Shown: positions 32,604-58,701 of the stretch, in pieces
Position numbering within the stretch: the first letter of the stretch is position 1
How the letters are laid out: each line of letters opens with the position of its first letter
Translations under genes and position numbers: made by a program
Notes under the pieces: model-generated
What the model was told of the DNA's origin: nothing
What the model saw: the letters and a program-made list of their open reading frames with translations, nothing else
Databases searched by the model: none
Source: Candidatus Bathyarchaeia archaeon
Lineage (GTDB): Archaea; Thermoproteota; Bathyarchaeia; Bathyarchaeales; Bathycorpusculaceae
DNA: 64,000 nt
Direction of reading: 5' to 3'
Assembly: GCA_049521795.1 (NCBI GenBank)
Contig: JBEKOM010000001.1
Span: forward strand, 384,001-448,000

Positions 32604-33902
<1,299 letters not shown>

Positions 33903-33937
33903 CGAAGCACCCGTTGTGCGGGCGTGAAAAATCAAAA

Positions 33938-34990: not shown

Positions 34991-34994
34991 TTCG

Positions 34995-38709: not shown

Positions 38710-38792
38710 ATCTCTGGAGCCTGATGCCTGTTTTCTACCTGCCTTATTGAAGCTTGATCATAGAAACAATCAAAATAGCGTAGGGAGAGCTA

Positions 38793-38969: not shown

Positions 38970-38986
38970 TCTGGGGTCGACCGTAA

Positions 38987-40123
38987 ATGCTTGAGAAAAC
39001 AGCTAGGCGTAAAGTTCTGGTGGTAACTTCAAGGAACGTTCACTATCGCATTGTGGCGCCCGTGATTCAAGAACTGCAGAGAAGACATTGGTATGTTCGT
39101 GTTTTGCGATTTGAGAGGGTGTGGGAAAGGGCGGAAAGTCTTCTTTCGAGAACCACGAGAAGGCGATCTCTCAAATCATTCTACGTAAGACCTACAACAA
39201 GTCGTCCCAACAGGCTCAAGGAGCTTGCATATTCTTTGATTTCTAAGTTTGTTTTTTATACATCAAGGGTTTTGCAGGTTGAGAAACCAGACATAATAAT
39301 CGTCATGACCGACAGCACGCCTCCTTGCAGGATAGCGGTTCTGGCTGGAAGATTGGACAGTATCCCATCCTTGCTTCTGTTGCTCTCGGGCATGATCGGG
39401 CGCAACTATCAATCTCCTAGTTTTATCGTTGACAAGATCGCGGTGCCTGGAGAGTTCGCACGAGAGGTACTCGAAAAGTGCGGTGTTGATAAAGAAAAAC
39501 TTGTAGTAACTGGGTATCCATCATATGACGTGCTGGTAAAGGCCGAAGAGCACTTCAAGAAAAACGAGATATGTAAGAAACTTGGTCTCGATCCTGCGAG
39601 AAAGATAGTTGTTTATACAACGGAAAACCTCCCAGCTCGAGAAAGCAAGATTGTAACTCGTGCCGTATGCACCGCTGTGAAGAGTCTTCAGAATATACAA
39701 TTTATTATTAAGGTTCACCCATCAGAGCTTGATCTATCCACGTACCGCCATGTAACAAGAGACTTGGAGCTGGATGCGTTGATAACAAGGCACGCAGATA
39801 TCTACGAAGTCCTGTACGCATGCGACGCGCTGATTACTGGATTCTCGGCCACCGCGCTTGACGCCATGATTCTTCAGAAGCCTGTGATCACGATCAACCT
39901 CACAGGGCTGGCCGACCCTTTGTCCTTTGCAGAAAGTGGTGCAGCGATAGGAGTAAATAGCGAGGGAGACTTGGAGGGTGAGCTGGAGAAGGTGCTGTAC
40001 AACAAGGAATTGCAGGAGAAACTAAGACGAGGAAGAGAAGCTTTCGTTTTCAAGCATGCCTACAAGCTGGACGGAGAATCCACAGAGAGAGTCGTAACGC
40101 TCGTTGAGAAGATCAGCAAATGA
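38987..40123 (+). CDS. GT-B fold protein, paralog of the 29931 gene
   Basis: VTGYPSYD, IKVHPSE, YEVLYACD, HAYKLDGESTERV shared with the 29931 product. Confidence 0.78.
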   Translation: MLEKTARRKVLVVTSRNVHYRIVAPVIQELQRRHWYVRVLRFERVWERAESLLSRTTRRRSLKSFYVRPTTSRPNRLKELAYSLISKFVFYTSRVLQVEKPDIIIVMTDSTPPCRIAVLAGRLDSIPSLLLLLSGMIGRNYQSPSFIVDKIAVPGEFAREVLEKCGVDKEKLVVTGYPSYDVLVKAEEHFKKNEICKKLGLDPARKIVVYTTENLPARESKIVTRAVCTAVKSLQNIQFIIKVHPSELDLSTYRHVTRDLELDALITRHADIYEVLYACDALITGFSATALDAMILQKPVITINLTGLADPLSFAESGAAIGVNSEGDLEGELEKVLYNKELQEKLRRGREAFVFKHAYKLDGESTERVVTLVEKISK

Positions 40124-40386
40124 GCAAGCGGGCGCGATAAGAGTGGTGTCCACATGCAAGTTTCAGGTCAAGAAAACAAGGCGGCGCTTTTCGTCAATGC
40201 GAAAAGAGCGCACGAGGAAAAAGGAATCTGTCACATCATTTGCGTCGGAGCTAAGAGACCTTTCCGATTGAACGATTTCTTGGGTATTATTACTGGCACG
40301 CGCTTGCACGGCATTGTTCAGTATGCTTTCAGGTCTGAAAGTTGAATTGGTTAGAACGCAGCTCCGTAAATCGAGTCGAATGTATT

Positions 40387-41352
40387 CTATGTTGTCTTCT
40401 TCCAGTATTCAATCGTCCTTTCAAGGCCCTGGTCTAGGTCTACTTCCGGCTTCCAGTCCAGTTCTTTTCTGGCTTTGGTCGAGTCCAGTATTATGTAGGG
40501 TTGGTCAGATATGATCGGTCTCATGGGGTAGCCAGGGGGATAAGCGCCAAGTATCAGATTCTGACGATCGAAACCAAGTTTCTTTGCTATTGTATTCGCT
40601 AGTGTTTGATTGGATATTCCTCTGCCCGTACCTATGTTGTACACTTGTCCCTTCCTTCCCTTTTCTATGGCTTGCACATAGGCGTTCACATGGTCGTCCA
40701 CGTACATATATTCTCGAATGGACTCAGGGGCGCCAACATACACTTTTTCCTTTTTGAGCATAGTTGTTATAAGGTATTCGACCATGAAGGTTTTGTCGAA
40801 TTTTCTTCCATACGTGTTGCAAGGACGTAGTACAACTGCATCCAGATCGTAGACTTGTGCTACCATCTGGAGATATTTGTCAGCGGCAACTTTTGAAACT
40901 GCATATGGAGAACTCGGCCTCAAAGGGGTTTCTTCCATGAAAGGTTTTTTGTCGGTGTGTATGCCATATACTTCTGCAGTTGATGCTGCAACAAGCTTCC
41001 TTTTCTTGTAATCAGTCAGTTCCAGCATTGCGTGGGCTATGTTCATCGTCCCCAAGAAGTTCACTTTTTCATAGTCGAAAGGCCTTTCAAAGGACAAACG
41101 CACAGGTGACAACGCTGCTAGATGAAGTACATAGTCTGGATCGGCCGTCTTGAGTGCATTTGAGACAGACATGAAATCAGTGATGTCAGCCGTAATCAAT
41201 ACAATGTCTTTTGATATGTCCTTGAACCTCTCAAGGGTTCTTTGGGAACTCGGCCGTATTACGCCGTATACTGTATGATCAAGATCGATTAGCCTCCTGG
41301 CTAGGTGGCTTCCTATGAAACCGGTCACGCCAGTCAAAACTACGTTAGCCAT
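40387..41352 (-). CDS. NDP-sugar 4,6-dehydratase / epimerase (extended SDR)
   Basis: TGVTGFIG, HLAA, STAEVYG, PYAVSK, REYMYVDD. Confidence 0.9.
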   Translation of the reverse strand: MANVVLTGVTGFIGSHLARRLIDLDHTVYGVIRPSSQRTLERFKDISKDIVLITADITDFMSVSNALKTADPDYVLHLAALSPVRLSFERPFDYEKVNFLGTMNIAHAMLELTDYKKRKLVAASTAEVYGIHTDKKPFMEETPLRPSSPYAVSKVAADKYLQMVAQVYDLDAVVLRPCNTYGRKFDKTFMVEYLITTMLKKEKVYVGAPESIREYMYVDDHVNAYVQAIEKGRKGQVYNIGTGRGISNQTLANTIAKKLGFDRQNLILGAYPPGYPMRPIISDQPYIILDSTKARKELDWKPEVDLDQGLERTIEYWKKTT

Positions 41353-42083
41353 GTTTCATCGTGCACCTTCTTTCTTAAAACGTCCTCCGCCAGTTTCAGT
41401 TCTTTTATGGTGTTAATGGTCATCCAAGTTTCCTTCATTATGTAACCTCCTAAAAGCTTTTCCTTAGCAAGCAGAGGGAACGTTGTTTCTTCGATCCGTC
41501 CCTTTTCAGGCAGATAATCCTTGACCTCCTTACCGAAAACGTAGACCCCCATACTTACTAGCATGGAAGGAATCAGAGGCTTCTCATCAAAGCCCGAAAT
41601 CAACCCGTCTTCTCCCATTCTCACTACTCCAAAAGGGCTCCGAGGGTTTGCTACGGCAATCGTAGCTACACTGCGATGCTTGCAATGATAATCAACCATG
41701 TCTTTTAAATCAAGGTTTGTTATCTCATCACCGTTCATGGCCACAAAGACTTGATCATTCACAAACCGGTTTACGGCAAGCTGGAAGCCCTCTCCTGTTT
41801 CACCCTCGACACTGTGGACGCTGTAATCAATTTTAACTCCGAGTTTAGATCCGTTTCCGAAGAAGTCCATGACAGAATCTTTGCAGTAAGCTACGCCGAT
41901 TATTACATGTTTGATTCCATTGTGTTTCAGCCACTCAATTACCCACTGAAGAATAGGTTTTCCCAAGACTCTGACCATCACCTTTGGTTGGCTATCCGTT
42001 AAAGGCCTTAGTCTGAGGCCTGCTCCTCCAGCGAGGACGACGGCTGTTTTCGCTTCACATCCACTCAATCTGTTCCTTCCCAA
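41340..42083 (-). CDS. Sugar-phosphate nucleotidyltransferase
   Basis: LAGGAGLRLRPLT..PK, MNGD, FDEKP. Confidence 0.9.
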   Translation of the reverse strand: MGRNRLSGCEAKTAVVLAGGAGLRLRPLTDSQPKVMVRVLGKPILQWVIEWLKHNGIKHVIIGVAYCKDSVMDFFGNGSKLGVKIDYSVHSVEGETGEGFQLAVNRFVNDQVFVAMNGDEITNLDLKDMVDYHCKHRSVATIAVANPRSPFGVVRMGEDGLISGFDEKPLIPSMLVSMGVYVFGKEVKDYLPEKGRIEETTFPLLAKEKLLGGYIMKETWMTINTIKELKLAEDVLRKKVHDETWLT

Positions 42084-42993
42084 GAGCTCTCTTAATTCTT
42101 ATGTAGGTATTGATCGTGAATGACTTAAGAGTTGACTCGATTTTTCCGGTCCATGCAGGGTTTGCCTGCTGAATCAGCTTTTCCCATTCTTCTTGATCCC
42201 ACGCATTCCACATTCTGAGCTTTCTAACATTTGCATTGACTGTTTCGACATTGTCTTTCTTTTCGGGAGACATGTACTTGATGAACCCGCCGACCATGTC
42301 CTTGGCAACGTCGATTTTCCATTCTTTAGTAGTTTCTTCCTTGATTCTGAACTTGACAGCATGCGTTGACGTTTCATCGCTTGGTCTTACTACATGATGA
42401 TAATGAAACGTCGTGGGAACTTTGCCATACTTAAAACCGCCGTTTTCAACTAGCTCTTGAAACAGCAGGTCTTCCATTCTGTAGCCGTAATCATCTTCCA
42501 GGTGTTTGATATTCTTGAAAGCCTCTTTTCTTCCCATTTGACTGCCAGAGTAGGCTCTGGGGCTTTCAAATGATCCCTTGACTTCTCTTTCAAAATGATA
42601 TACTAAGACTCTCTTGCATTCGAACCAGTCCCATTTCTCTCGATATTTGCACATTTCTTCGTACCAGTGTCTTGGAAGGGAAACGTCTGAATGGAGGTAA
42701 ACGAACCATTCGGTTTCAACTTCGTCAATCAACTGTTTGATTCTGAAACTTAAAGATTTGAATCTTGATTGGTCAAAAACCTTGACGCGAGGATATTTCT
42801 TCGCTGTCCCTATTGTGTTGTCAGTAGAGCCTCCGTCTCCGATCAATAAGCGGTTGATTGGAATTTCTCTGTAGAAACTGTCAAGGCACTCTTCCCAGTT
42901 ATCCTTCGTGTTCTTGACAGGTACAACAACGTCCATTCTTTCTAAATCGGATTCCACGGAAGCACGGTCTATGTTCACACGACTGCCGAGCAT
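42055..42993 (-). CDS. GT2 (GT-A) glycosyltransferase
   Basis: DVVVPVKN, DGGSTDNT, LHSD, ED motif. Confidence 0.85.
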   Translation of the reverse strand: MLGSRVNIDRASVESDLERMDVVVPVKNTKDNWEECLDSFYREIPINRLLIGDGGSTDNTIGTAKKYPRVKVFDQSRFKSLSFRIKQLIDEVETEWFVYLHSDVSLPRHWYEEMCKYREKWDWFECKRVLVYHFEREVKGSFESPRAYSGSQMGRKEAFKNIKHLEDDYGYRMEDLLFQELVENGGFKYGKVPTTFHYHHVVRPSDETSTHAVKFRIKEETTKEWKIDVAKDMVGGFIKYMSPEKKDNVETVNANVRKLRMWNAWDQEEWEKLIQQANPAWTGKIESTLKSFTINTYIRIKRALGKEQIEWM

Positions 42994-43222
42994 GAGTTGT
43001 CCTCGTTCTGTTCAACGACCTATCGAAGGATCGAAGTCATAAACAAATAGATTGCTATTCTTCCCTTTCGATGGCAGGCTTGGTATTCGGACGTTAGCAG
43101 ATGCGTTGAACCTGCACACTAGATTAATAAGATGCTCACAAATATCTTAGCAAACATGATGTTCGCCAGTGTGATATTCAAGATTGAATATCGCCATTCT
43201 GCTTTGCTTGCGGGAGGATTGA

Positions 43223-44197
43223 ATGAATAAGGTTTTAGTGGTAGGAGCGGGCAACATTGGAAGTAGACATCTGCAGGCGTTGGGAAGAAGCAGAATTCCG
43301 TTGGAAATAACTGTAGTCGACCCAAGTGTTCAGGCGTTGGAGATGTCGAAACAACGTTTTGATGAGGTTGTTGCCAAGTCTGCTATTAAACCAAAGTACT
43401 GTCAAAACATGGAATCCGTGGGCGGAAAATTCGATGTGGGAATAGTTGCAACGACCTCGGACATAAGAAGAAGAGTTGTTGAAGAGCTACTGGGTAAGAG
43501 GAGAGTAAAATATCTGATACTAGAAAAAGTTGCCTTCCAGAGCGCAAGTGATTTTGAACATGTTATACAGCTACTGAACTCAAAGAATGTGAAGGCTTGG
43601 GTGAATTTTCCGAGAAGGGTCATCCCCTTTTACAAAGAATTGAAAACGATAATCAAGCCTCATGAGCAAGTTTTTTACACTGTTGAGGGAGGCGATTGGG
43701 GTTTGGCCTGCAATGCGATTCACTTCATTGACGTGTTGTGTTTCTTGACCGAAGAGACAGACTACAAGGTGTCTTGTCATGGTTTGGACAGGAGCGTAAA
43801 AGAAAGCAAGCGCAAAGGTTTTGTGGAGTTTACCGGTTCTCTTCAATGCTATTTCGGCAATGGGAGCGAGCTTAGCCTCATTTCGCAGAATGGTTCGACT
43901 TGTCCGCCTTTTATAACCATTTTGACAAGATCTGTTCTAGCTGTGGTCGAAGAAGAGAAGAGTGTGGCTGAGATGTCGAAGGAAGAAAAGAACTGGGAAT
44001 GGGAGGAAATCAGATTCAAATGGCCATATCAAAGCGAACTGACTCATAAGATCGTTGAGGAAATCATTGCCACAGGGAACTGTGGGTTGACACCAATCCA
44101 AGAGTCCTATTTGATACACAAGCCTATGCTGGGCTCTTTCATAGATTACCTCGAAAGGATCACAGGTAAGAAATATCCGGTTTGTCCAATTACATAG
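43223..44197 (+). CDS. Gfo/Idh/MocA oxidoreductase
   Basis: GAGNIGSRH, ILEK, WVNFPRR, GLACNAIHFID. Confidence 0.85.
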   Translation: MNKVLVVGAGNIGSRHLQALGRSRIPLEITVVDPSVQALEMSKQRFDEVVAKSAIKPKYCQNMESVGGKFDVGIVATTSDIRRRVVEELLGKRRVKYLILEKVAFQSASDFEHVIQLLNSKNVKAWVNFPRRVIPFYKELKTIIKPHEQVFYTVEGGDWGLACNAIHFIDVLCFLTEETDYKVSCHGLDRSVKESKRKGFVEFTGSLQCYFGNGSELSLISQNGSTCPPFITILTRSVLAVVEEEKSVAEMSKEEKNWEWEEIRFKWPYQSELTHKIVEEIIATGNCGLTPIQESYLIHKPMLGSFIDYLERITGKKYPVCPIT

Positions 44198-44228
44198 AAC
44201 ACCTTACGACGGTGTTGGGGGAACCAAA

Positions 44229-45170
44229 ATGAAAAAGATATGGTTAGTCGGCGCTGGTTACATGGCGAAAGAATACGCAAAGATCCTTAAAGCCCTGAAA
44301 CGTGAATTTACGGTAATAGGCAGGGGAAAAGAAACAGCAGCTGATTTCGAGAGGGCCCTAAACGTCCCTGTCATAACGGGCGGTGTTGACAATTATATAG
44401 AGTCAAGTCAGGACAGGCCTGAGTATGTAATTGTGACGGTGGACGCTCAGTATCTGTATGAAGTGTCGAAGAAGATTATGAAATTCGGCGTCCAAAACAT
44501 GTTGCTTGAGAAGCCTGGCGCTTTGAACCTTTCAGATATAAGAGAATTGCAGAAATTGTCCACAGACAAGAAGTCAAAGGTTTTCATCGCTTATAATCGC
44601 AGGTTCTATTCATCAGTGCTTAAGGCAAAGGAGATCATGAAAACGGATGGAGGATGCACCTCTTTCACTTTTGAATTCACTGAATGGAGTCACCTTGTTA
44701 AAGACTCAAAGAAATCCGAAGGAGAAAAGAATAGATGGTTCATAGCGAACTCTACGCACGTCGTTGATCTCGCCTTCCACTTGGGAGGAGCTCCTAAGCT
44801 CATCGAGTGCTACGCTTCGGGTGGGTTGGACTGGCATCCATCCGCATCAATCTTCTCAGGAGCAGGTGTCGCAGACAATAATGCTCTCTTCTCTTATCAC
44901 GCCAATTGGGAAGCACCAGGCCGGTGGGGAGTAGAAGTTCTGACGAGAAAACACAGGCTGATTCTGAGACCCTTAGAAGAGTTGCAGGTTCAAAATCTTG
45001 AATCAGTTAACGTCGAAAAAGTTGAGCTCGACGACAGGTTGGACAAGTTGTTCAAGCCAGGCTTGTACAGAGAAACCGAATCTTTCTTGACGGGTGCATA
45101 TGACAATCTGAAACCTCTACGTGACCAAGTCAAAGATATGCAATTGTATTGTAAAATGGCCAACTACTAG
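44229..45170 (+). CDS. Gfo/Idh/MocA oxidoreductase
   Basis: GAGYMA, LLEKP, AYNRRF, NSTHVVD. Confidence 0.85.
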   Translation: MKKIWLVGAGYMAKEYAKILKALKREFTVIGRGKETAADFERALNVPVITGGVDNYIESSQDRPEYVIVTVDAQYLYEVSKKIMKFGVQNMLLEKPGALNLSDIRELQKLSTDKKSKVFIAYNRRFYSSVLKAKEIMKTDGGCTSFTFEFTEWSHLVKDSKKSEGEKNRWFIANSTHVVDLAFHLGGAPKLIECYASGGLDWHPSASIFSGAGVADNNALFSYHANWEAPGRWGVEVLTRKHRLILRPLEELQVQNLESVNVEKVELDDRLDKLFKPGLYRETESFLTGAYDNLKPLRDQVKDMQLYCKMANY

Positions 45171-45351
45171 ACAACAGGTCTTTGCCATAACGCAGCTGTT
45201 GCATTATCGAATAATAAAGAAATCCGTCACGGAGACTCTTGAGGCCTCTTAAGCCTTCGAAAAACCCTTACTCTTTCTTGAATAGGCAAAAGTTATGTGA
45301 AATCAGATCTATCATTACTTGCAGAGAACACGAAACTCACGAGGTGTCAGC

Positions 45352-46299
45352 ATGTCACACAACTATTCAAAGATCCTCATAACCGGAGGAGCTGGCTTCA
45401 TCGGAAGCCACCTTGTTGATAGACTTCTAGTTGACGATTTCGAAGTCACGTTGATTGACAATCTTTCTACTGGCAATCTGGACAACATCAGTCGTCACGA
45501 TGGCAAAAAGAATTTTCATCTCTTACGTGGTGACATTAGGAGGCTTGATCTCGTGAAGAGGGCGGTTAAGGAAGCTGAGGCAGTTTTTCATGAAGCCGCA
45601 GTTCTATCTTGGACTGGTTCTCGGAAAAGCCTTGTTCGTCTTAACCATGTGAACGTGAGCGGAACCTTAGCTCTTCTCAACGCAAGCGTAGACTCCGATG
45701 TTAAACGATTTATTTACGCCTCGTCTGCTGCTGTATATGGAGAGGCCAGCCCGCAACCTCAACGCGAAGACTTAAGTCCGGAACCGATTTCTCCATACGG
45801 TGTTTCAAAATTGTCAGCGGAGCAGTATGTCCGAGTATTCCATAAGTTGTATGGGCTTGAAACAGTTTGCCTACGGTACTTCAACGTTTATGGTCCTCGC
45901 CAGAAATATGGTCCTTATAGCGGGGTGATAACAAAATTCATGAATCGCATATCAAAGAATGAACCACCAATCATTTACGGAGACGGAGAACAAACCAGAG
46001 ACTTCGTGAATATCAAGGATGTCGTAGACGCAAACATGCTTGCTCTAACGACGAAAAGCGCGGTCGGCGAAGTTCTTAACATCGGCACCGGCGTGGCTTC
46101 TAGAATAAGAGAGTTGGCCAAAACGCTTCAAGAAATCATGGGCCAAAAACGTGTCAAGCCCATACGCGCAGGTTTGAGACCCGCAGACATTAGACACAGT
46201 TGGGCTGACATCAACAGGGCCAAGAAAGTTTTGGCGTATGATCCAAAGGTCTCTCTTAGGAGCGGACTACGCGAACTAGCCAAGTATTTTCGAGGCTAG
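45352..46299 (+). CDS. NAD-dependent epimerase (UDP-Glc/GlcNAc 4-epimerase-like)
   Basis: TGGAGFIGS, SSAAVYG, PYGVSK, RYFNVYGPRQ, GDGEQTRDF. Confidence 0.92.
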   Translation: MSHNYSKILITGGAGFIGSHLVDRLLVDDFEVTLIDNLSTGNLDNISRHDGKKNFHLLRGDIRRLDLVKRAVKEAEAVFHEAAVLSWTGSRKSLVRLNHVNVSGTLALLNASVDSDVKRFIYASSAAVYGEASPQPQREDLSPEPISPYGVSKLSAEQYVRVFHKLYGLETVCLRYFNVYGPRQKYGPYSGVITKFMNRISKNEPPIIYGDGEQTRDFVNIKDVVDANMLALTTKSAVGEVLNIGTGVASRIRELAKTLQEIMGQKRVKPIRAGLRPADIRHSWADINRAKKVLAYDPKVSLRSGLRELAKYFRG

Positions 46300-47078
46300 T
46301 GGGCGTTTGGTTTCCTTAGCTTGACGTTCGCACGTTTCTTGAATCGTTTCCAGTATTCTTCCTGAACTCCCTTGTTAATCTCGGCGAGCGCAGGTTCCTT
46401 CTTCAAGAGGCTTAGTATGTCTTTAAGCGTGAACAACTTTCCAGGCACATACAATCGGTCGTAGACCTCCTTCACAAGTTCAAGGTCTTCAGGGTAGTCA
46501 ACGGTAATTCTGATCTCGGGATGTTTCAATTCGTTGTCTTCAGGCTCAAGATACTCCACGTCGAAGAGTCCGGTGTCGGTGAAGTATGCTCCCCATCCGG
46601 TTTCTGTGTTCAGTGTATCCTTTATCTCGCAGACTTTTCTTAAAGCATCAACTTTCACGCCAACCGGAGTCGCTCCGAGCGGCAGATTGTTCCATTTAAC
46701 GAAGCTGGCTCCTGTCTTCAAGAAGGTTTCCGCTGTTTTGTCCATCAACTCGGGATCGCAGAAGACATCGTCTCCATCGACGTTTACTATGAAGTCCACG
46801 TTGTATTTGAGAGCAGCGTCAAGGTATCTCTTCAGGATATCGTGTTCGCTTCCACGGAAACACTCTGCCCCGCTTTTCTTAGCAATGTTGACGAAAATCC
46901 TATCTTCAGGCTGAGTGGTCGTGCACAGAACAACTAGATTTGGAAGTTTTGCTGCTTTTGCTCGGTCGATAAGGTGTTCTATGAGGCTCTTGCCTTTAAC
47001 TTCGATTAATGGTTTTCTTGGAAGTCTACTCGAGCCAAGTCGGACAGGTATGAACACCGCGATTTTGGGCATGTGCAT
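46296..47078 (-). CDS. SpsF-like cytidylyltransferase (candidate CMP-nonulosonate synthetase)
   Basis: PVRLGSSRLPRK, FRGSEHD.L.RY, VDGDD, RITVDYPEDL. Confidence 0.88.
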   Translation of the reverse strand: MHMPKIAVFIPVRLGSSRLPRKPLIEVKGKSLIEHLIDRAKAAKLPNLVVLCTTTQPEDRIFVNIAKKSGAECFRGSEHDILKRYLDAALKYNVDFIVNVDGDDVFCDPELMDKTAETFLKTGASFVKWNNLPLGATPVGVKVDALRKVCEIKDTLNTETGWGAYFTDTGLFDVEYLEPEDNELKHPEIRITVDYPEDLELVKEVYDRLYVPGKLFTLKDILSLLKKEPALAEINKGVQEEYWKRFKKRANVKLRKPNAH

Positions 47079-47099
47079 CAGCTCAAATCTTGTACAAGC

Positions 47100-47963
47100 T
47101 TAACTTCGTAGTCTCTTTGTCAGATCCTGCTGAAGGTCTTCAGCTATTCTCTTGACCTTCCCAACCTCTTCTCTGATTTCTTTGTCCTTAATCTCTTCCT
47201 TTCGCTTCTCGTTTGACTCCAAAATCAGGCGCAGCAACTTGGAGTCGTATCCTTCCAACAACAATTCTACGTTAGGAATTACGCAGTGCCTGCCAATGAC
47301 GTCTGGAAACATAATTGGCCTGTCAAACCTGGCACGATGCGTGTCAGCTAGGAAGTCGACAACTTGGTCAAAATCTGCTCCGAAATGTCTAGAAATGCGG
47401 TGCATCTCCTGAAAACAGGTTATCATCCAAGCTCTGTAAGTAGTTTCAAAGAGCTTGGCTAACTCGGTTTCTGCGCAGCTTTTCAAAACCTTGGTTCTCA
47501 AACCGAAGGCTCTAAAATGCTTGTCGGCAGCTCTTCCAGCTTCAGCGTTAGCGCCGCCGACGTACTTTGTCCAGCGCTTTAGCTCCCATTTCATGTGCTC
47601 TGGGCTTTCATGCACTCCTCGGAATGGAGAGTGCGCGACGAGATAAGGGCAACGTTTGCTCACGCTCTTTGTTGTTCCTGGCGGAACCGTGCTGTTGATG
47701 ATAACGAGTTTCGGTTTGAATCGTTTCGCGTAGTTAACGACAGCACTCACAAATTCTTCTTGCCTTTTGCATGGTATGCAAATGTGAGTGATATCTACTT
47801 TACTTGGAAGCGAGGCCTGTCCAGTTTTTCGCATCTTGGATTCGTCGAGGTCAAATCCATAGACTGCAAAACGCCCACTTTCTTTCAATAAGTCAAATAT
47901 GGCCTGACCGACTTCGCCCAAGCCAACGACTAGGACTCTCTGTTCCGCCAACTGCCGCCACAT
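47100..47963 (-). CDS. UDP-glucose/GDP-mannose dehydrogenase-family protein (short form, no C-terminal UDP-binding domain)
   Basis: GLGEVG, STVPPGTT, ELAKLFET, IGRHCV. Confidence 0.85.
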   Translation of the reverse strand: MWRQLAEQRVLVVGLGEVGQAIFDLLKESGRFAVYGFDLDESKMRKTGQASLPSKVDITHICIPCKRQEEFVSAVVNYAKRFKPKLVIINSTVPPGTTKSVSKRCPYLVAHSPFRGVHESPEHMKWELKRWTKYVGGANAEAGRAADKHFRAFGLRTKVLKSCAETELAKLFETTYRAWMITCFQEMHRISRHFGADFDQVVDFLADTHRARFDRPIMFPDVIGRHCVIPNVELLLEGYDSKLLRLILESNEKRKEEIKDKEIREEVGKVKRIAEDLQQDLTKRLRS

Positions 47964-48030
47964 CCTTTCAGCGGAAAAAATGGTTCATCAAACTATTTAA
48001 ACTTCATACACCCTACAGCCTTAAGGCGAA

Positions 48031-48543
48031 GTGGAAGACATGCCGCAGCCAAAGATGGGAAAAGGCGTAATCGTTGGAAAGAACGTCAAGTTCGGCCACA
48101 ACGTGGTCGTCTGGAACTACGTTGTGATAGGCGATAACGCAAGAATTGGCGACGGAACACGCATCGGCAGCTTCTGCGACATAGGCAAGAATGTCATAAT
48201 GGGTAGTAACTGTAATGTGCAGACTCACGTCACGATCTCGAACGGTTGCAGGATAGGCAATCAGGTGTTTATCGCGCCGAACAGCACGCTTTTGAACGAC
48301 AAGTTTCCAGTCAGCGAGCAGTTGAGCCCGCCAACGATTGAAGACAGTGTCATAGTAGGCGGGTGCGCAGTGATACTGCCAAACGTGACGATCGGCAAAG
48401 GCGCTGTTGTCGCAGCCGGAAGCGTAGTCACGAAAGACGTTGGGTCGGCAGTTGTCGTGAAGGGTTTTCCAGCAGAGCCGATGATGACGCGGAAAGAGTA
48501 TGAAGCAAGGAAGAAGGTCTTCGTCCCGAGGCGGCTACGGTGA
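48031..48543 (+). CDS. Hexapeptide-repeat N-acetyltransferase (WbpD-like)
   Basis: LbH repeats, NDKFP, AAGSVVTKDV..GFPA. Confidence 0.88.
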   Translation: MEDMPQPKMGKGVIVGKNVKFGHNVVVWNYVVIGDNARIGDGTRIGSFCDIGKNVIMGSNCNVQTHVTISNGCRIGNQVFIAPNSTLLNDKFPVSEQLSPPTIEDSVIVGGCAVILPNVTIGKGAVVAAGSVVTKDVGSAVVVKGFPAEPMMTRKEYEARKKVFVPRRLR

Positions 48544-48547
48544 AAGG

Positions 48548-49534
48548 ATGAAAGTCTGGTACGACGCCTGCACAGGCAAACACGTTAGGTATGGCGCAGC
48601 GATTGCGAAACGTTTGAGAAAGCGTGGTCATGAAGTAATATTCACGACGAGAGAGCATCCTGACACAGTGGCTCTAGGAAAAATACTTGGCGAAAACCCC
48701 ATCGTCATTGGGAAGTACGATCCAGCATCGCTTTATACGCGGTTAGAAGAAAGCGCAAATCGGGTGCTCAGATTTTCAAAAATGTTCAGAGATGGTTCGC
48801 CCCAACTGGCCATCTCGGCCCAGTCTGTGGAGTTGTGCCGGTCTGCTTTTGGTTTAAACATTCCAATAATCGTGACGGCCGATACTCCTTATGCCACAGC
48901 GGTTAACAGGTTGACGATACCTCTAGTAAGCCTGCTTCTAATCTCAGAAGCCATCCCAAAGAGTCTCTTCAAAAAGTACGGAGCACAGAAGATTGTTCAG
49001 TTCAAAGGCGTAGACGAAGTGGCTTGGGCAAAAGACGTCAGCAGACTGAAGGCTCCTGAACTTAGGAGACCCTTGATCGTCGTCAGACAGATGGAGACGC
49101 GAGCTGCGTACGGACTTGGTAAGGGCGATGTCACCGTTGAGGCTGCGCGCAAGCTTTCTTCTCTGGGCACCGTTGTTTTTCTGCCGCGCTACAGCACGCC
49201 TAGAGATAAGAAACTGGTCGTTTTGAACGAGTTTGTGGATTCAACAGGTCTAGCTGCTCAGGCTGATCTGGTTGTGAGCGTGGGAGGGACGATTGCGAGG
49301 GAAGCTGCTTTGCAGGGGACGCCCAGCATCGTGATATCTGAATTTGGCCGTATTCAAGTAAACGAGTACCTCTCGAAAAAGGGCTTTCCACTCTTCATAG
49401 TGAAGCCGTCAGGGGTCATCACTCATGCCAAACGGTGCCTAGGGAAGAAATTCGACGTCAGAGCGAAACTGAAGAGCCTTGAGAATCCTGTTGACGTCAT
49501 CGAAAAAATCATCAAAGAAAAGCAACTCGCCTAG
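48548..49534 (+). CDS. DUF354-family GT-B-like protein
   Basis: MKVWYD..TGKHVR, GGTIAREAALQGTPSI. Confidence 0.82.
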   Translation: MKVWYDACTGKHVRYGAAIAKRLRKRGHEVIFTTREHPDTVALGKILGENPIVIGKYDPASLYTRLEESANRVLRFSKMFRDGSPQLAISAQSVELCRSAFGLNIPIIVTADTPYATAVNRLTIPLVSLLLISEAIPKSLFKKYGAQKIVQFKGVDEVAWAKDVSRLKAPELRRPLIVVRQMETRAAYGLGKGDVTVEAARKLSSLGTVVFLPRYSTPRDKKLVVLNEFVDSTGLAAQADLVVSVGGTIAREAALQGTPSIVISEFGRIQVNEYLSKKGFPLFIVKPSGVITHAKRCLGKKFDVRAKLKSLENPVDVIEKIIKEKQLA

Positions 49535-49583: not shown

Positions 49584-49661
49584 GGGCCGGTCGTCTAGCT
49601 TGGTTAGGACATTGGCTTTACGAGCCAAAGGTCGCCGGTTCAAGTCCGGCTCGGCCCACCA
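49584..49661 (+). tRNA. tRNA-Val(TAC), intronless, encoded CCA
   Basis: GGGCCGG...TTGGC-TTTACGA-GCCAA...GCCGG-TTCAAGT-CCGGC-TCGGCCC-ACCA. Confidence 0.97.
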
Positions 49662-50902: not shown

Positions 50903-51382
50903 ACGACTCCCTCTGTAGCATTCTATGTAAAGCTTGCATTATAACTATTGCGGACACTATGTTATGTGCAATATCCCAGTCCAAATGTTGTAGAAGAAAA
51001 CGCAATTGTACACCTGTTGTCTCAGGTTGACGGAGACCCATCTCGACTTGTGCTTTTGTCACAATTGCGCTCAATTTTATAAGTGGTTAGAGAGGTACCC
51101 TCAGACTTTTGAACAAGTGAATAAGCAGACAGATACAGGCAGTCAATGGGCACGCGAGCTCCGAAAGGCCACAGCGAAGAAACGTGGCCGCCAAGGCCGT
51201 TTTTCGAGGTATTTTCTTCCTCTTTTTCAACGGTGAAAAACCAACCGCGGGCAGGTGCGAGGGGAAGTTCTGTGTTATAAGTCTGGTGTTTACTTGGCGC
51301 GCGCGATAAAACTTTACCGTTTGGGTTTGGGGCAAGACTTTAATTCAAACTGATTCAAACTACAAAGTGGAGCCACGGGTCT

Positions 51383-52153
51383 ATGTGGAAAAAGAAAGAA
51401 GAAAAGAAAGAAGAGAAAGAGGAAGATTTGTTGAAGAAGCTATGTGGGAACGACACGAAATTGTATGATCTTCTTAGTCAGAGCTTGTATCTAGATCCTA
51501 AGGAGGCCATATCCAAACCGGATCTCAAGATCCTCGTCGAGGAGGCAGAGAAAAGTGCCGGGGATGAAGATTATCGAGGAGCAATGGAGAAATATAGAAC
51601 GGCATTGGATAAGGCCATTTTTGAGGCCACTCAAAATCCAGGGGAAATGGGTAGATACATTAAGGTCAGTCAAGACCTCGCGTCGAAGACCGCAAAAGTG
51701 ATAGAGAAAGCAAAAGAGAAGGCAAGGAAGGAAGGATTTGCGTCCCCTTCTCTTGAAGGAAGAATCAAATATTATGAATCTATGAGCGAAAGAATTGAAG
51801 ATGTCATAAGAATAGCTTCTCTCTTTTACAACGAGAGATTAGAAGAGTTGGGAGCAAGTGCTCGCGCGCTAGAACGAGAAACAAGAAAAGGAGAGAGAAG
51901 AGGCGCTGAGAGAAAAGAGGAAAAAGATGAGATGGAAGCAAAGGAGAGGCGAGAAGCAAGAAGAAAAGGAATGGGAAGAGGAGAGAGAAAAGAAGCTGAG
52001 AGAGAAGATGAGGAAATAGAGAAGAAAGATGAGGAGAGAGGGAAGGCAAGAAGAAAAGAAGGAATAGAAGCTGAGAGAGAAGAGGATAGGGCAGAGGAGA
52101 GAGAAAAGGAGAGACGAGAGGCGAAAAGAAAAGAAAGGGAGAAACAAGAATAA
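51383..52153 (+). CDS. Hypothetical helical protein with an E/R/K-rich repetitive C-terminal tail
   Basis: 256-aa ORF; about 90 C-terminal residues almost entirely E/R/K/G/A/D. Confidence 0.75.
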   Translation: MWKKKEEKKEEKEEDLLKKLCGNDTKLYDLLSQSLYLDPKEAISKPDLKILVEEAEKSAGDEDYRGAMEKYRTALDKAIFEATQNPGEMGRYIKVSQDLASKTAKVIEKAKEKARKEGFASPSLEGRIKYYESMSERIEDVIRIASLFYNERLEELGASARALERETRKGERRGAERKEEKDEMEAKERREARRKGMGRGERKEAEREDEEIEKKDEERGKARRKEGIEAEREEDRAEEREKERREAKRKEREKQE

Positions 52154-52192
52154 CTTAGACAAGACGCACACGCTAAGTGGTGTTTGGGTTTA

Positions 52193-52210
52193 GGGATAAC
52201 GTCTTATCCC
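52193..52210. terminator. Perfect 7-bp hairpin between convergent genes (possible terminator or stability element)
   Basis: GGGATAA-cgtc-TTATCCC. Confidence 0.35.
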
Positions 52211-52339
52211 CCGGCTAAATTTCTACAAGTCAGCTGTCTTTTGAAAATTCTTATAATGAAAACTAAACAAGAAAAATGAAAAGAAAAATCGACGTGCACC
52301 TAGTGCACACGACACGTTCGCTAACATACGCGCGCAATA

Positions 52340-53020
52340 CTAGAGAGCCTGGAAGAGCATTTGGTTTCTGTTCTTGTCGGCGTCCTTTATCGTTCCGATC
52401 TTCCTGAGAGAGTAAGTCATTTTTCGAGATTGGTTAATGGGTATTCTGAGATTTTCGGCGAGGTTTCTGTTCGTGAATGGATTGGGGAGGTCTTTGGGTA
52501 AAACTCTGAGGAAATCCATCTTGTTCTCAAACATCACACTTTCAAGAATGCCGATGAGCTTTCTATCTTCTATGCTCGCGCCTTTTCTTCTCCAGCTTCC
52601 TTTTCCATCGTTACACCATATTTCCTCCACCTCAATCATCAGGACCTCGATGCTGAGGTTGCCCCTGGGGAAGAGATCCGATATTCTGATCAATTCACTG
52701 AAAAGATCGTATATGCTGCCTCTCTTTGGGGACATCCTTCTTCCGGTGATTTCTCCGTTGGACGTAGACCTGTGAGCTATCCATTTCTTCTTGGGTATAG
52801 GGTGGGCCAAGCGAACCTTGTGATCCTCGAGCAGACGTCTGAGTTTCGGTTTTATCGCTGAAAAGTTGGCGGTCTGTATTTCGATCAACAGGTCTCCTCG
52901 TACAATGTCCACTATGAAATCGTCCAGTTTGGCTTCTATTCTGTCCCCTGCAAGAAAGTACCATTTCTTTATCGAAGAGTGAAGTGAGCTCTCCCTTCTT
53001 GAGTCAAATGTGTTTTCCAT
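52340..53020 (-). CDS. Putative PD-(D/E)xK-like nuclease with a C-terminal HTH
   Basis: ESSLH..IK.WY, E...DDFIVDI..DLLIEIQT motif; C-terminal FTNRNLAENL...YSLRKIG. Confidence 0.65.
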   Translation of the reverse strand: MENTFDSRRESSLHSSIKKWYFLAGDRIEAKLDDFIVDIVRGDLLIEIQTANFSAIKPKLRRLLEDHKVRLAHPIPKKKWIAHRSTSNGEITGRRMSPKRGSIYDLFSELIRISDLFPRGNLSIEVLMIEVEEIWCNDGKGSWRRKGASIEDRKLIGILESVMFENKMDFLRVLPKDLPNPFTNRNLAENLRIPINQSRKMTYSLRKIGTIKDADKNRNQMLFQAL

Positions 53021-53100
53021 CAAAGTTGACGTCCACAGCATTCTCGGTACTGTATGGGTTGCGACCGCATAAGAATACTGCTAAAAAGAAAGTATATGCT

Positions 53101-53177
53101 CGCGCGCGAGCACACGACGACGAACGACTAACCTCTTTTCAATCTCTTTGCTACGATATGCCTGCTCAACCACTATC
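53101..53177 (+). repeat. Degenerate intergenic repeat, copy R1
   Basis: CGCGCGAG-CACACGACGA..CTAACCTCTTTTCAATCTCTTTG..ACGATAT..TGCTCAACCACT. Confidence 0.7.
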
Positions 53178-53266
53178 GCACTCACTTATTGATCGTAGAA
53201 GGTAACACAGATTCAATTTCCAACGTGCACGCATGCACCACATTTCGCGGTCGCTTTCTCCAGTTT

Positions 53267-54109
53267 CTATTTCTGGCATTTTGGGCAGACAAACACTTTG
53301 CCTCCTCCAAGACTCAGCTCTTCTATAGGAGTGTGGCAAACTGGACAGTTCTGTTTTCTCATGTTCGGGCCCATGGCTGAAACGTAGCGGCCTTGCTTCT
53401 GATGAAGATCCGAGAACTGGTTTTTGCCGTTCAACCGGATTCTCTCGTGAAGCACAAGTTTGACGGCATCGTAAAGTGCTCTTTGCTCATCTGAGTTTAA
53501 CTCTGAGGCCTTTCTTTTCGGATGCAGTTTAGCTCTGTATATGATGTCTTGAAAGGCGCTGTTACTCAACCCAACCACTACAGCATCTTTTCCAACAAGA
53601 ATCGATTTGAGCGCCTTGTTATTGTCCTGCAAAAGCTTGGAGAAATTGTTGAATGTAAACGTCTCATCTATGGGTGACAGTATATCTGGGTTGAAGTCTC
53701 GTTTGTACATGTAAGAGTCCATAAGCTCATCATCCCTAAGCACGTGGATCCCTCCCATGCTGGTGAGCCTCACCGTCAAAGCAGTTCCGTCAGAGAAATC
53801 TATTCTCAGGTGGAATTCCCTTGGAACGGTTGCTCCATGTGAGTGATAAAAAACTTCGCCGCCGTACTCAGGACTAAGAATGAGGTTCAGCTTCGCATCA
53901 AGTTCTATACGAATAGTGTTACCCCTGGAAGTGACAGATTCAATCTTTCTGCCCATAAGTTGGTTAAAAGATTTGATATCTTTGTTCATGAATCCAATCT
54001 TCTGCAATCGTTCGTAGTCTCGTAAATGATGACTATTGATGCGTTTGCCTTCGAGTTCTTTGTTCATTTGTTCTGCTAGAATTTTGGCTTCTGGAAGTTC
54101 AATACTCAT
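53267..54109 (-). CDS. Fpg/Nei-family DNA glycosylase homolog
   Basis: ELPE N-terminal motif, SRGN, H2TH (GLSN...DII.RAKLHP), CPVC..CPKC zinc finger. Confidence 0.88.
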   Translation of the reverse strand: MSIELPEAKILAEQMNKELEGKRINSHHLRDYERLQKIGFMNKDIKSFNQLMGRKIESVTSRGNTIRIELDAKLNLILSPEYGGEVFYHSHGATVPREFHLRIDFSDGTALTVRLTSMGGIHVLRDDELMDSYMYKRDFNPDILSPIDETFTFNNFSKLLQDNNKALKSILVGKDAVVVGLSNSAFQDIIYRAKLHPKRKASELNSDEQRALYDAVKLVLHERIRLNGKNQFSDLHQKQGRYVSAMGPNMRKQNCPVCHTPIEELSLGGGKVFVCPKCQK

Positions 54110-54168
54110 CTTGAGTCTCCATTGTTACTCGTCTTGGCAAACGAGTCCTTAAATGGTTTTGCAAACAT

Positions 54169-54258
54169 CGCGAGCACTGTGGATGCACACGACGAGCCTA
54201 CCTCTTTCCAAACCTCTTAGTTCCCTATGAGCAAAAACCTTATTCATTGTTCTATCTA
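54169..54258 (+). repeat. Degenerate intergenic repeat, copy R2
   Basis: CGCGAG..GCACACGACGAGCCTACCTCTTTCCAAACCTCTTAG..TCATTGTTC. Confidence 0.7.
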
Positions 54259-54283
54259 TTCTTGAGTGGTGATTGCATTGGGT

Positions 54284-54370
54284 ATGGGAAGCGCCAAGAA
54301 TAAACCGATGACTAAGAAAGAACGAGAAGAGAAAAGGAAGAAACACAAGGAAAAACGGTTAAAGAAGTAG
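54284..54370 (+). CDS. 28-aa basic micro-protein MGSAKNKPMTKKEREEKRKKHKEKRLKK
   Basis: GGTGA Shine-Dalgarno-like site upstream; similar to the neighbouring micro-ORF; below the ORF-track length cutoff. Confidence 0.55.
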   Translation: MGSAKNKPMTKKEREEKRKKHKEKRLKK

Positions 54371-54407
54371 TCTCAGTCATCATGCGTTTATTCTTAACGT
54401 GCTCTAT

Positions 54408-54500
54408 CGAGCGCACGACGACTATCTCTTTTCAACTTCTTTGTTCTTTGAATCCTCTCTGAAACGATATCATTGTTCAACCACTTCTATCATTGTTCGA
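54408..54500 (+). repeat. Degenerate intergenic repeat, copy R3
   Basis: CGAGCGCACGACGACTATCTCTTTTCAACTTCTTTG..ACGATATCATTGTTCAACCACT; TATCATTGTTC occurs twice. Confidence 0.75.
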
Positions 54501-54584
54501 TCGATCCATCAGTTTCGATCACGGCAAAGCATGCGCAATTTTAATAGACGTGAGAGCATAGTCTAATCTTAAGGAGGGTGAATT

Positions 54585-54716
54585 GTGCCCAAAGGCAAGA
54601 ATGAGAAAGCTATGGATCATAAACGTCACATGAAATTGCAGAGAGAGAAGGAACTGAAAAGGAAAGAGAAACGGAATGTTGAGCTCCCTGCGGAATATAA
54701 TAAAGGTAAGAAATAG
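54585..54716 (+). CDS. 43-aa basic micro-protein MPKGKNEKAMDHKRHMKLQREKELKRKEKRNVELPAEYNKGKK
   Basis: Strong SD GGAGGGTGA just before GTG; AT-rich TATA-like TTTTAATA at about 54539. Confidence 0.7.
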   Translation: MPKGKNEKAMDHKRHMKLQREKELKRKEKRNVELPAEYNKGKK

Positions 54717-54770
54717 CGCGCGAGATTAGCGCAATAGTCTATCTCTTTTCAGTCTCTTAATTCTCTCAAG
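54716..54770 (+). repeat. Degenerate intergenic repeat, copy R4
   Basis: GCGCGCGAG..GCGCAATAGTCTATCTCTTTTCAGTCTCTTAA. Confidence 0.65.
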
Positions 54771-55032
54771 CCTCTTCATGAGGTAGCCACCTGACACGTC
54801 CCTTGATTAAGTCTGCTATTCTGCAGTGCTTTCGCAAGCTTCCTAGCTTCATTATTGCTTCTTTCAAGGACGCTTCAGAGATTTTTGATGTGCTAGGGAC
54901 ATACTTGGGTATTTTCTTGATGCGTTCTCTGCTCGAGGTCGGTTGAAAACAGTGTCATTAGTGCAGACAAAATTCTCTTATTCGCTGATCTCTTTATATT
55001 GCTAAAAACCCATAAGCATTGAGGTTTGAAAT

Positions 55033-55428
55033 ATGGATCCAACCGTAAAGGCAGGAATTTCCGGCTTTTTGTTGGCAATCGTCATCAACCTCTTTTCGCC
55101 TGTGTTCCTTTATTTTGTTCCCTCTCTTTTGGCTGCAATATTGGCGGTATACTTTTTCAGGCTTGGCACGCTCAAAGACGGACTGGTGGCCGCCTTCATG
55201 GTTTACATCTTTAACGACGGGATTTTGGGCACAGTCAGTCTGGCATCGTTCTATGCGGAGAACAAACCCTACCCATCGTTCAATGTTGACGTTTGGACCA
55301 TGTTCTCCCCATTGGTCTCGGCAGTTACAGCCGTGATTGCGGCGTACGTAGGAGTGTGGCTTACTCAAGTAAGGAAGCCGCCTCCAGGGTTGCCTTCGGC
55401 GCCTTCTCCGCAGTTGCCGCCTGCTTAG
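55033..55428 (+). CDS. Small multi-pass membrane protein with a Pro-rich tail
   Basis: About 4 hydrophobic helices; GAGG SD upstream. Confidence 0.75.
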   Translation: MDPTVKAGISGFLLAIVINLFSPVFLYFVPSLLAAILAVYFFRLGTLKDGLVAAFMVYIFNDGILGTVSLASFYAENKPYPSFNVDVWTMFSPLVSAVTAVIAAYVGVWLTQVRKPPPGLPSAPSPQLPPA

Positions 55429-58476: not shown

Positions 58477-58701
58477 CTCATCAACGGTCCAGCTAAACCC
58501 TCACTATCCTTGCCCAGACTCTCGGCTGAACCCTCAGTACATGCTCTGCTTCAAACCTGTCCAAATCCACTAGGGCCCTCGACGACGCCTACTTGCAGTA
58601 CTAGTACCCTGGGGGAAGGGGGTGAAATAGAAGGGGAAAAACGCGAAACACTGCATGTTAAACCATCTGTCAAAACGCTTTTTAAGCATAAGTGACCTGT
58701 C

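Follow-up and report, generated by a model that had tools for sequence, protein, structure and literature searches.

The question raised by this locus is what kind of element marks the boundaries between the single genes of a short array on an archaeal chromosome, and whether these boundaries are places at which genes are gained, lost or moved. The array lies in a stretch of 64,000 nucleotides (nt) from Candidatus Bathyarchaeia archaeon (GenBank assembly GCA_049521795.1, contig JBEKOM010000001.1, positions 384,001 to 448,000 of the forward strand), which is called the window here. The genome of origin, G000 (2.44 Mb, i.e. 2,439,145 bases, in 69 contigs, 48.6% G+C, 98.75% complete; the window is G000:C1:384001-448000), was compared with related genomes (G001, G002, G008, G009 and others); scanned loci carry L-numbers. 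An initial annotation had described four degenerate repeats in the array and had read them as scars of an integron-like gene-capture mechanism. The part of this claim that stood comprises conserved arrays of single genes between co-oriented repeats, variable gene content and order, and insertions or deletions (indels) ending at the repeats; nothing specifically integron-like was found. The explanation to which we give most weight, evenly balanced as it is, is a cassette-like array that recombination at the repeat, which is termed R, has remodelled. The order of the locus is: gene of a Lys/Glu-rich protein, R0, a DUF8091-like gene (-), R1, an Fpg gene (-), R2, the gene of a 34-amino-acid (aa) protein (small open reading frame 1, sORF1), R3, the gene of a 43-aa protein (sORF2), R4.

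All four repeats of the initial annotation, R1 to R4, were real and lay on the + strand as claimed, and the shared motifs were present: CACGACGA in R1, R2 and R3, ACGATAT...TCAACCACT in R1 and R3 (repeat family D4) and TCATTGTTC in R2 and R3 (repeat family D8). The count had been incomplete, since a fifth, truncated copy, R0, precedes them; it resembles the 5′ part of an R copy at G008:C19:72920-72963. The (CG)nCGAG string named as a part of the repeat was also present, but belongs partly to an intergenic (GC)n motif that occurs genome-wide and is not specific to R. A profile built from the four cores of about 50 nt matched only R1 to R4 across the 2,439,145 bases of the genome, the next match having an E-value of 0.14. 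When each copy was left out of the profile in turn, R1, R2 and R3 were each recovered as the best non-training match genome-wide (E 0.031, 0.099 and 0.11); R4 was not among the best seven matches listed and was recovered through its orthologues in relatives. The degenerate hairpin of R2 is intact in its orthologues in G002 and G009 (GAGCTC/GAGCTC and GTGCACT/AGTGCAC), and R4 lies 3′ of sORF2 in all seven genomes with a copy at that place (G000, G002, G005, G008, G009, G011 and G018). One gene was found in each interval, as described for the Fpg gene and the two small genes, and likewise between R0 and R1, which enclose a 233-aa gene on the - strand. The observation that R1 and R2 follow no + strand gene proved correct and is true of R0 also.

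The anatomy of R was derived from an alignment (A2) of 18 copies, drawn from five genomes within the genus plus two belonging to other genera, and from later alignments of 33-35 copies. R begins with a GC-rich hairpin of 5-6 bp and a loop of 3-5 nt, the arms of which vary among copies yet stay complementary (GTGCTC/GAGCAC, GTGCAC/GTGCAC, GAGCTC/GAGCTC, GAGCG/CGCTC, CGCAC/GTGCG, TGCTCG/CGAGCA). The hairpin is followed by a spacer of 8-14 nt, often ACGACGACTA, and by a pyrimidine core in which a CCTCT(T) motif recurs two to four times at intervals of about 11 nt, with the consensus CCTCTTTCTAACCTCTTAGTTCTCTCAAGCCTCTCTG; long copies continue into a conserved tail, ACGATATCAYTRTTCAACCACT...CATCAATCAAGGTAAC. 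R contains no TATA-like box, promoters being situated behind it. Altogether about 60-150 nt of primary sequence are conserved across families in unrelated contexts. In the hairpin alignment, 19 cells had changed on both sides of the stem, compared with 6.3 in shuffles, and none of 500 shuffles reached 19. Non-Watson-Crick pairs in this register were, by hand count, seven G.T and one A.C on the + strand, suggesting that the + strand may fold as single-stranded DNA or RNA. No match to Rfam was obtained at E up to 1, either in window positions 52100-55100 or at four loci with long copies. Coding potential on the minus strand of R (peptides such as ..ERLERTKRLKRDR..) was ruled out, because the copies differ by indels of 1, 2 and 8 nt; R is thus non-coding. 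Behind the GGTAAC end of long copies, arrays of the heptamer TTTCTAA followed by inverted TTAGAAA copies could be observed at L058, L043, L084 and L088 (e.g. L088 around 1930-2000, in R orientation).

The layout of R was surveyed in 78 metagenome loci scanned with a covariance model of R; L143 was left out because it overlaps L142. These loci held 146 copies of R, with a single copy in 34 loci and two to five copies in 44, and not one of the 44 multi-copy loci had copies on both strands. The 68 intervals between copies contained an sORF2-like gene (14 intervals, plus one that the filter missed), an sORF1-like gene (10), both (2), another open reading frame (ORF) of at least 60 aa on the + strand (11) or on the - strand (19), no ORF of at least 60 aa (7) or a short gap (5). 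Tiny lysine-rich proteins thus occupied 27 of the 68 intervals and other genes 30. The gaps had a median of 337 nt and ranged from 16 to 2636 nt. Maps of eight arrays showed R, about 70 nt, a gene, about 20 nt and the next R, with minus-strand genes fitted equally snugly; the genes carry their own promoters on either strand, and each interval holds one gene, rarely two. The same-direction, one-gene-per-interval layout first noticed in the window is therefore the rule for R in this survey. It was also correct that the locus is not a CRISPR array: unlike CRISPR repeats, R copies are degenerate (48-57% identity per column) and irregularly spaced, and the spacers hold genes instead of being non-coding and uniform in length.

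Gene content and order between copies varied among relatives and metagenome loci as had been supposed, and the intervening genes, whose fixation in all relatives had been named as evidence to the contrary, were not fixed. The block R2-sORF1-R3-sORF2-R4 was kept whole in G002 and G009 amid entirely different genes. G008 and G011 showed R-sORF2-R without sORF1, L088 showed sORF1 and sORF2 only 19 nt apart with no R3 between them, and L071 carried a different spacer in the place of R3. At L128 and L129 the order was sORF2, sORF1 and a gene of 190 aa; the latter, together with its downstream R, was found in several different places, while its protein is absent from G000 and showed no family membership beyond a weak match to RRM (E 0.026). 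Among the tenants, the two tiny lysine-rich genes vary least, each moving together with its downstream R copy. The neighbours of Fpg differed in every relative examined, and among 20 Fpg loci scanned R was near fpg only in the window and in G002. The Fpg, DUF8091-like and Lys/Glu-rich genes also occur without flanking R in other relatives. The R copy beside fpg in G002 is a chimera of an R2-type hairpin and an R1-type core, as a crossover between R1 and R2 would yield. As a separate observation, an element of about 190 nt with terminal inverted repeats beginning GCGCGCATGC..TGTTCC..AAATGG abuts a truncated R beside fpg in G002 (L002, around 2505-2695), and an end similar to that of this element occurs in G000 on contig C2 near 3119.

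Turnover was also observed in 199 pairs of metagenome loci with high-scoring segment pairs of at least 85% identity, which contained seven indel events, six of them independent. No more than 45 nt separated 18 of the 28 indel boundaries from a copy of R, against about 7% expected from the coverage of R, and three events had R at all four boundaries. The two events that were read base by base were the 190-aa gene with its R (L128 versus L147) and a segment of 3.1 kb (L142 versus L115). In both, the shorter form has a single R, which was left-like up to CTCTTAGTTCTYT and right-like thereafter; these two junctions lie inside the core.

Copies of R are not restricted to this genome. A sequence-only covariance model found matches in 12 of 41 related genomes, with one to five copies each; the R-bearing genomes include eight of the ten other genomes of the genus as well as G011, G018 and G030, and the matches in relatives reached an E-value of 8.6e-16, to be taken as rough because the model was purpose-built. 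A 23-nt pattern from the core was present in 18 stretches of GTDB species genomes, 17 with Bathyarchaeia or Bathyarchaeota in their titles and one with Methanomethyliaceae, and in at least 123 metagenome stretches; it had no match in the IMG/VR viral contigs. Judged by these labels, R was found only in DNA of Bathyarchaeia, with one record excepted. No description of R or of the (GC)n motif was found in the literature on archaeal intergenic GCGCGC, on terminators and mobile elements of Bathyarchaeia and on archaeal integrons, mostly consulted at the level of abstracts. R is an undescribed boundary element of Bathyarchaeia archaea.

The orientation of R irrespective of gene strand, the tight single-gene intervals, the diverse tenants, the changes in order and the indels ending in cores argue together for recombination at R that moves whole gene units. 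In such a mechanism R would be a strand-specific non-coding junction element between single-gene units, and recombination at or between the cores would add, remove and reorder these units. Units would probably be gained through R and not merely lost; the enzyme might be a recombinase encoded elsewhere, or short-homology recombination might act instead, and R may have a second role at transcript 3′ ends. A more specific proposal, which we advance tentatively and consider doubtful, is a gene-capture system of the Bathyarchaeia's own, in which a recombinase that is encoded elsewhere and is not an integron integrase would bring in, cut out and rearrange promoter-bearing units at a site of a novel type, a short single-strand hairpin with a core of CCTCT repeats. 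Within this proposal, the tiny lysine-rich proteins might be architectural or directionality factors with putative binding to the phased core motifs, and the genus-specific (GC)n runs at many other break points of homology may be junctions of a second class, spread through the genome.

Several results weigh against recombination at R. The perfect runs common to the two cores on either side of an insert are only 9-13 nt long, which fits neither classical homologous recombination nor, alone, a defined crossover site, and indels bounded by R are no proof of capture, because direct repeats of any kind favour loss of the DNA that separates them. One 23-nt pattern served to seed the metagenome loci, many of which derive from related populations, so that the counts are not independent, and the ORF calls in the intervals are crude, being the longest ORF per interval and not curated. 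The hairpin alignment comprises 19 of about 33 copies, leaving out the R4-type copies, R2 of G000 and others without a clear stem; its pairing percentage (90.4% of 114 cells, compared with 10-64% in slid registers) is inflated, because rows were chosen for having a hairpin, and the covariation alone counts. The G.T bias is only 7 to 1 (one-sided p about 0.035). An integron integrase was absent from G000 (best match to TIGR02249 32.5 bits, cut-off 265), and recombinase families were absent from the 16 most recurrent neighbour clusters of R loci. The initial annotation had seen no recombinase in the window, and no tyrosine recombinase lies there: PF00589 had ten matches in the genome and none in the window, the nearest (C1:382727-383182) being about 0.8 kb before its start. 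One R array was associated with an integrase, namely at L216 (G008:C9:70300-79800), where direct repeats of 276 nt (916-1191 and 8134-8409, 89% identical), holding a CcdA-like small gene and part of a tRNA-Val, bracket, along with the orthologue of the window's tRNA-Val gene, a segment of 7.2 kb with an integrase at 1358-2032 (PF00589, 6.9e-16), ABC-transporter genes and the R array inside. This segment looks like an integrated element containing an R array. The arrangement is not general, however, as homologues of the G008 integrase occurred within about 3 kb in only one of 96 R loci. Finally, a purely transcriptional role of R is possible, because R lies mostly right behind co-oriented stop codons and its core resembles the pyrimidine-rich 3′ flanks of genes in this genome.

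Such a role is the chief alternative. R might mainly be a signal for expression of the tiny lysine-rich genes and some genes nearby, acting in + strand RNA as a module for 3′-end formation, termination or insulation, with a protective hairpin and a C/U-rich tract; arrays would have arisen by local duplication, recombination between copies would only delete, and the other genes would have come by unrelated insertions. We regard this as possible, though short of probable. Archaeal termination signals are oligo-T tracts, and the archaeal termination factor aCPSF1/FttA binds U-rich RNA. R resembles such signals in having a pyrimidine-rich tract shortly behind stop codons on the sense strand, as do 3′ flanks throughout the genome: wherever a copy was found behind sORF2, R4 begins at the stop codon of this gene, and in most contexts R lies, by eye, 0-40 nt behind co-oriented stop codons. 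With the locus excluded, the first 40 nt after stops contained 26-33 pyrimidine 7-mers per kb in sense and 14-17 in antisense orientation genome-wide; YCTCTT|CCYTTT occurred 3.0-3.9 versus 1.2-2.0 times per kb and CCTCTT 58 versus 19 times, and the wobble bias of the hairpin likewise favours the + strand. R differs from termination signals in its long conserved sequence, in its restriction to a handful of genes, in its single orientation whatever the gene strand and in the many copies without a T run of at least 3; T runs in the R4-type copies of relatives do not exceed 2. A 3′-end signal should follow the orientation of its gene, so that the fixed orientation of R weighs against this role: genes other than the tiny ones lay on the minus strand in 19 intervals and on the plus strand in 11, yet none of the 44 arrays showed a reversed R, and R0, R1 and R2 in the window stand behind no + strand gene. 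A terminator would not need 60-150 nt of conserved primary sequence, hairpin-plus-T terminators were not enriched after genes (4.8% in sense, 4.9% in antisense and 3.7% in shuffled sequence), and how unrelated genes gained homologous flanking copies is left unexplained. Folds of the sORFs together with R were no better than shuffles (z -0.57 and -0.75), which also disposed of a pairing between the purine-rich coding regions of the tiny genes and the pyrimidine core; one proposed pairing of a Shine-Dalgarno sequence with the 3′ tail was, by eye, not kept in G009. A bacterial-type intrinsic terminator was rejected, the pyrimidine core starting 8-14 nt past the hairpin and such terminators being unenriched after genes genome-wide. 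Nor do the copies mark transcript 3′ ends across the genome, an outcome that had been named as speaking against the cassette idea, for there are only four to five copies, all at one locus. An expression signal and recombination at R are not mutually exclusive.

Three further explanations fit worse than these two. The first, which we think unlikely, is that R is a small non-autonomous mobile element that inserts between genes, preferably beside other copies, with the genes as bystanders. It would account for copies in non-orthologous contexts and in a different family (G030), for the existence of truncated and long variants, and for the presence or absence of R3 between sORF1 and sORF2; the hexamer TAGTCT at both ends of the 214-nt R3 segment in G000 is one possible 6-bp duplication, and other families resembling miniature inverted-repeat transposable elements (MITEs) exist in these genomes. 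Yet there are only one to five copies per genome, clustered at one to few loci, the alignments show no terminal inverted repeats, and no target duplication was seen besides the TAGTCT case. Strict co-orientation with one gene per interval is unexpected from independent insertions, and in at least two of three clean events the indels differed by whole gene-plus-R units, not by R alone. G000 had no match to the Y1 transposase (PF01797) or to TnpB (PF07282), for which controls matched in six and eight of 14 genomes. Casposon junctions, which would call for terminal repeats, a target duplication of 14 bp and an island-linked Cas1 casposase, were likewise rejected: the Cas1 matches were two short fragments, and these lie on contigs C10 and C2, neither of which is the contig of the window. 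Repetitive extragenic palindromic sequences, bacterial interspersed mosaic elements (REP/BIME) and palindromes derived from IS200/IS605 are short intergenic hairpins, often just behind genes, strand-specific and acting as single strands; such elements can stabilise or terminate upstream transcripts and provoke rearrangements, number tens to hundreds of dispersed copies and depend on Y1 enzymes (RAYT/TnpA). R is like them in being a short hairpin-bearing intergenic element, often just behind genes and strand-specific, and differs in its one to five clustered copies per genome and in the lack of a Y1 transposase or TnpB in G000.

The second, which reads the locus as a canonical array of integron cassettes or a CALIN (an attC cluster without integrase), is highly improbable. 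In favour of it, R arrays share with integron arrays and CALINs co-oriented sites, mostly single genes between them, variable content and order, and units of gene plus site that are present or absent as a whole; the site tends to travel with the upstream gene and combines a conserved structure with a short sequence core. Integrons with ordinary attC sites are reported from archaeal metagenome-assembled genomes (Ghaly et al. 2022, PMC9668308). An attC site is an imperfect palindrome of 57-141 nt that folds as a single strand and carries R″/L″ and L′/R′ boxes; IntI is not required for a CALIN. R has no such long palindrome, its hairpin having only 5-6 bp and its conserved part being an unstructured pyrimidine core: single-strand DNA folds of the four units were no better than shuffles on either strand (z -0.63 to +0.75), and RNAalifold gave no consensus pair beyond the hairpin over 13 long copies. 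RYYYAAC and GTTRRRY boxes, which the initial annotation had been unable to fit, were not seen in the copies by eye, no formal attC model having been run. The units moreover carry their own promoters, 19 of the 30 non-tiny genes lie on the opposite strand, there are two to five sites per cluster, and IntI is missing. The locus is not a member of the integron family, because both the attC fold and IntI were looked for and neither was found. Tandem integration by tyrosine integrases at att sites of tRNA genes, as in archaeal and bacterial integrative elements, offers a partial parallel, in that the array lies downstream of tRNA-Val in a variable region, a tRNA gene is present in 20 of 96 R loci and a CcdA-like small gene in 24 (part of the latter possibly tRNA read-through), and the G008 segment has this form. 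R, however, has no resemblance to tRNA, the window has no second tRNA fragment and no integrase, and the G008 repeats bound a whole segment, not single-gene intervals.

The third, that the copies resemble one another by chance or through the composition of pyrimidine-rich intergenic DNA, as might be suspected from their degeneracy (mean column identity 48-57%) and low-complexity core, is refuted by the genome-unique profile, the leave-one-out recovery, the matches in 12 of 41 relatives, the copies at the metagenome loci and the covarying hairpin. The similarity thus beats chance; a failure to do so had been named beforehand as a refutation of the cassette idea.

Almost all known gene-cassette arrays belong to integrons, whose defining features are attC sites and IntI. 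This locus shows the same chromosomal layout and turnover in a widespread class of uncultured archaea, with a junction element that has none of the defining features of integrons and no recognisable partner enzyme. If R is a true recombination site, it would be an unrecognised route by which archaea assemble accessory genes, and its profile would be a sequence handle for arrays and their cargo in metagenomes. If R is an expression signal that merely recombines, it would still be an undescribed conserved non-coding element tied to two conserved protein families of 34 and 43 residues, and would still show that short repeats drive changes of gene order in these genomes.

Table 1. Positions in the window of the R copies, the genes of the array and the adjoining tRNA gene
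Feature	Position	Strand	Description	Basis
tRNA-Val(TAC) gene	49584..49661	+	edge of variable region	ARAGORN, Rfam
Lys/Glu-rich 256-aa protein gene	51383..52153	+	first array unit	ORF; no Pfam or NCBIfam match
R0	52291..52329	+	truncated copy: hairpin GTGCAC-CTA-GTGCAC and ACGAC spacer, core replaced at (GC)n run 52329-52335	sequence; hairpin alignment A4
233-aa gene	52340..53041	-	between R0 and R1	ORF; no Pfam or NCBIfam match
R1	~53095..53206	+	arms TGCTCG/CGAGCA around (GC)n loop, core CCTCTTTTCAATCTCTTTG, tail ACGATATG..TCAACCACT..GGTAAC	sequence, profile
Fpg/Nei-family DNA glycosylase gene	53267..54109	-	280 aa, between R1 and R2	Pfam H2TH 3.5e-13, Fapy_DNA_glyco 1.2e-10, zf-FPG
R2	54167..54229	+	degenerate hairpin, core CCTCTTTCCAAACCTCTTAG; between fpg promoter region and promoter of the 34-aa gene	sequence, profile
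sORF1	54266..54370	+	lysine-rich 34-aa protein gene	ORF, homologues; no family match
R3	54395..54530	+	hairpin GTGCTC-TATC-GAGCGC, core of three CT-rich iterations, long tail reaching sORF2 promoter	sequence, profile
sORF2	54585..54716	+	conserved lysine-rich 43-aa protein gene	ORF; no family match; Atlas: 'hypothetical' clusters only
R4	54714..54795	+	GCGC-N7-GCGC module overlapping sORF2 stop codon, core CTATCTCTTTTCAGTCTCTTAATTCTCTCAAGCCTCTTC	sequence, profile

An orthologue of the 256-aa gene in G009:C13 (93% nt identity) stands in a different context, directly behind a truncated R copy, and the homology begins exactly at the (GC)n run 51297-51305. The 233-aa gene had a feature score of 0.97 to DUF8091 clusters in the Atlas language model, which is a lead only, and no R lies near the orthologue of this gene at G008:C10 (79% nt identity). 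The NCBIfam fpg models matched the Fpg gene below their cut-offs. The small + strand gene that had been described as 28 aa long, starting at 54284, is real; it most likely encodes 34 aa from the GTG at 54266, because the frame is kept in homologues from relatives and metagenomes, where the internal ATG is often missing. Four copies of the sORF1 family are present in G000; the three further ones lie on contig C4 (13609-13709, 110107-110159 and 120132-120279), one with a lost stop codon and two no more than about 12 kb away from a tyrosine recombinase at C4:108028-108489. Contig C2 carries, at 9148-9264, a second paralogue of sORF2 with 56% identity. No R copies stand beside these extra sORF1-like and sORF2-like genes of G000. 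The sORF2 protein is 79-91% identical in G002, G005, G008, G009 and G011 and about 50% identical in other genera; upstream of the gene, a Shine-Dalgarno-like AAGGAGGGTGA and a TATA-like box could be recognised by eye. A recurrent hairpin element of the type GTTTGGGTTTGGGG plus GGGATAAAACTTTACCCC was seen behind several genes, including the C2 paralogue of sORF2 (window 52177-52215 and 51300-51335; G000 C2 around 9000-9400; L216 127-161, 6011-6045 and 7548-7582).

Runs of (GC)3-5, usually as A(GC)nT, were a strong intergenic signal throughout the genome, with examples in the window at 51297-51305, 52329-52335, 53101-53108, 54716-54722 and 10996-11002. GCGCGC was the hexamer most enriched in non-coding DNA (9.6-fold, 872 non-coding versus 463 coding occurrences), and 531 (GC)n runs were counted in crude intergenic gaps. 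They peaked 0-30 nt past stop codons and 40-100 nt ahead of starts, frequently with a TATA-like window following closely (81 of 226). The near-complete genomes of the genus contained 254-464 copies of GCGCGCGC, compared with 227 for G024, 53 for G030 and 0-7 for most other genera; by these counts the motif is lineage-specific. Such runs were noticed at several places where homology breaks off and where truncated R copies end. As a general break-point signal they were not retained, since four of 28 window break points lay within 15 nt of a run, compared with 3.2% of intergenic positions, which is suggestive only.

The surroundings of the array are variable in part. The first 25 kb of the window are collinear with G001, G002 and G009. 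A glycan-biosynthesis cluster follows at 29.9-49.5 kb (29931-49534), with genes for NeuB, UDP-GlcNAc 2-epimerase, DegT-type and class-III aminotransferases, dehydratases and glycosyltransferases; because most of it, from 29.7 to 47.1 kb, had no DNA match in G001, G002 and G009, the cluster is read as a variable surface-glycan island adjoining the array. The array itself lies about 2.6 kb downstream of the tRNA-Val gene, and no second copy of the 3′ end of this tRNA, a possible att duplicate, was found within the window. From the tRNA-Val gene to 58.6 kb, including the array, the content differed in every relative; G009 and G008 retained the succession of tRNA, sORF block and genes farther downstream. 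A MITE-like repeat of about 145 nt at 58500-58647, with 12 copies in G000 and more than 20 in G002, falls exactly between two blocks that G002 carries on separate contigs. A second dispersed kind of repeat (about 125-165 nt) occurs at 19636-19826, at a gap of an otherwise collinear alignment, and has many copies in G001 and G002. At Rfam gathering scores, the whole window yielded two tRNAs only; a tRNA match of 116 nt was observed at 10188-10303 (-), a length that could accommodate an intron.

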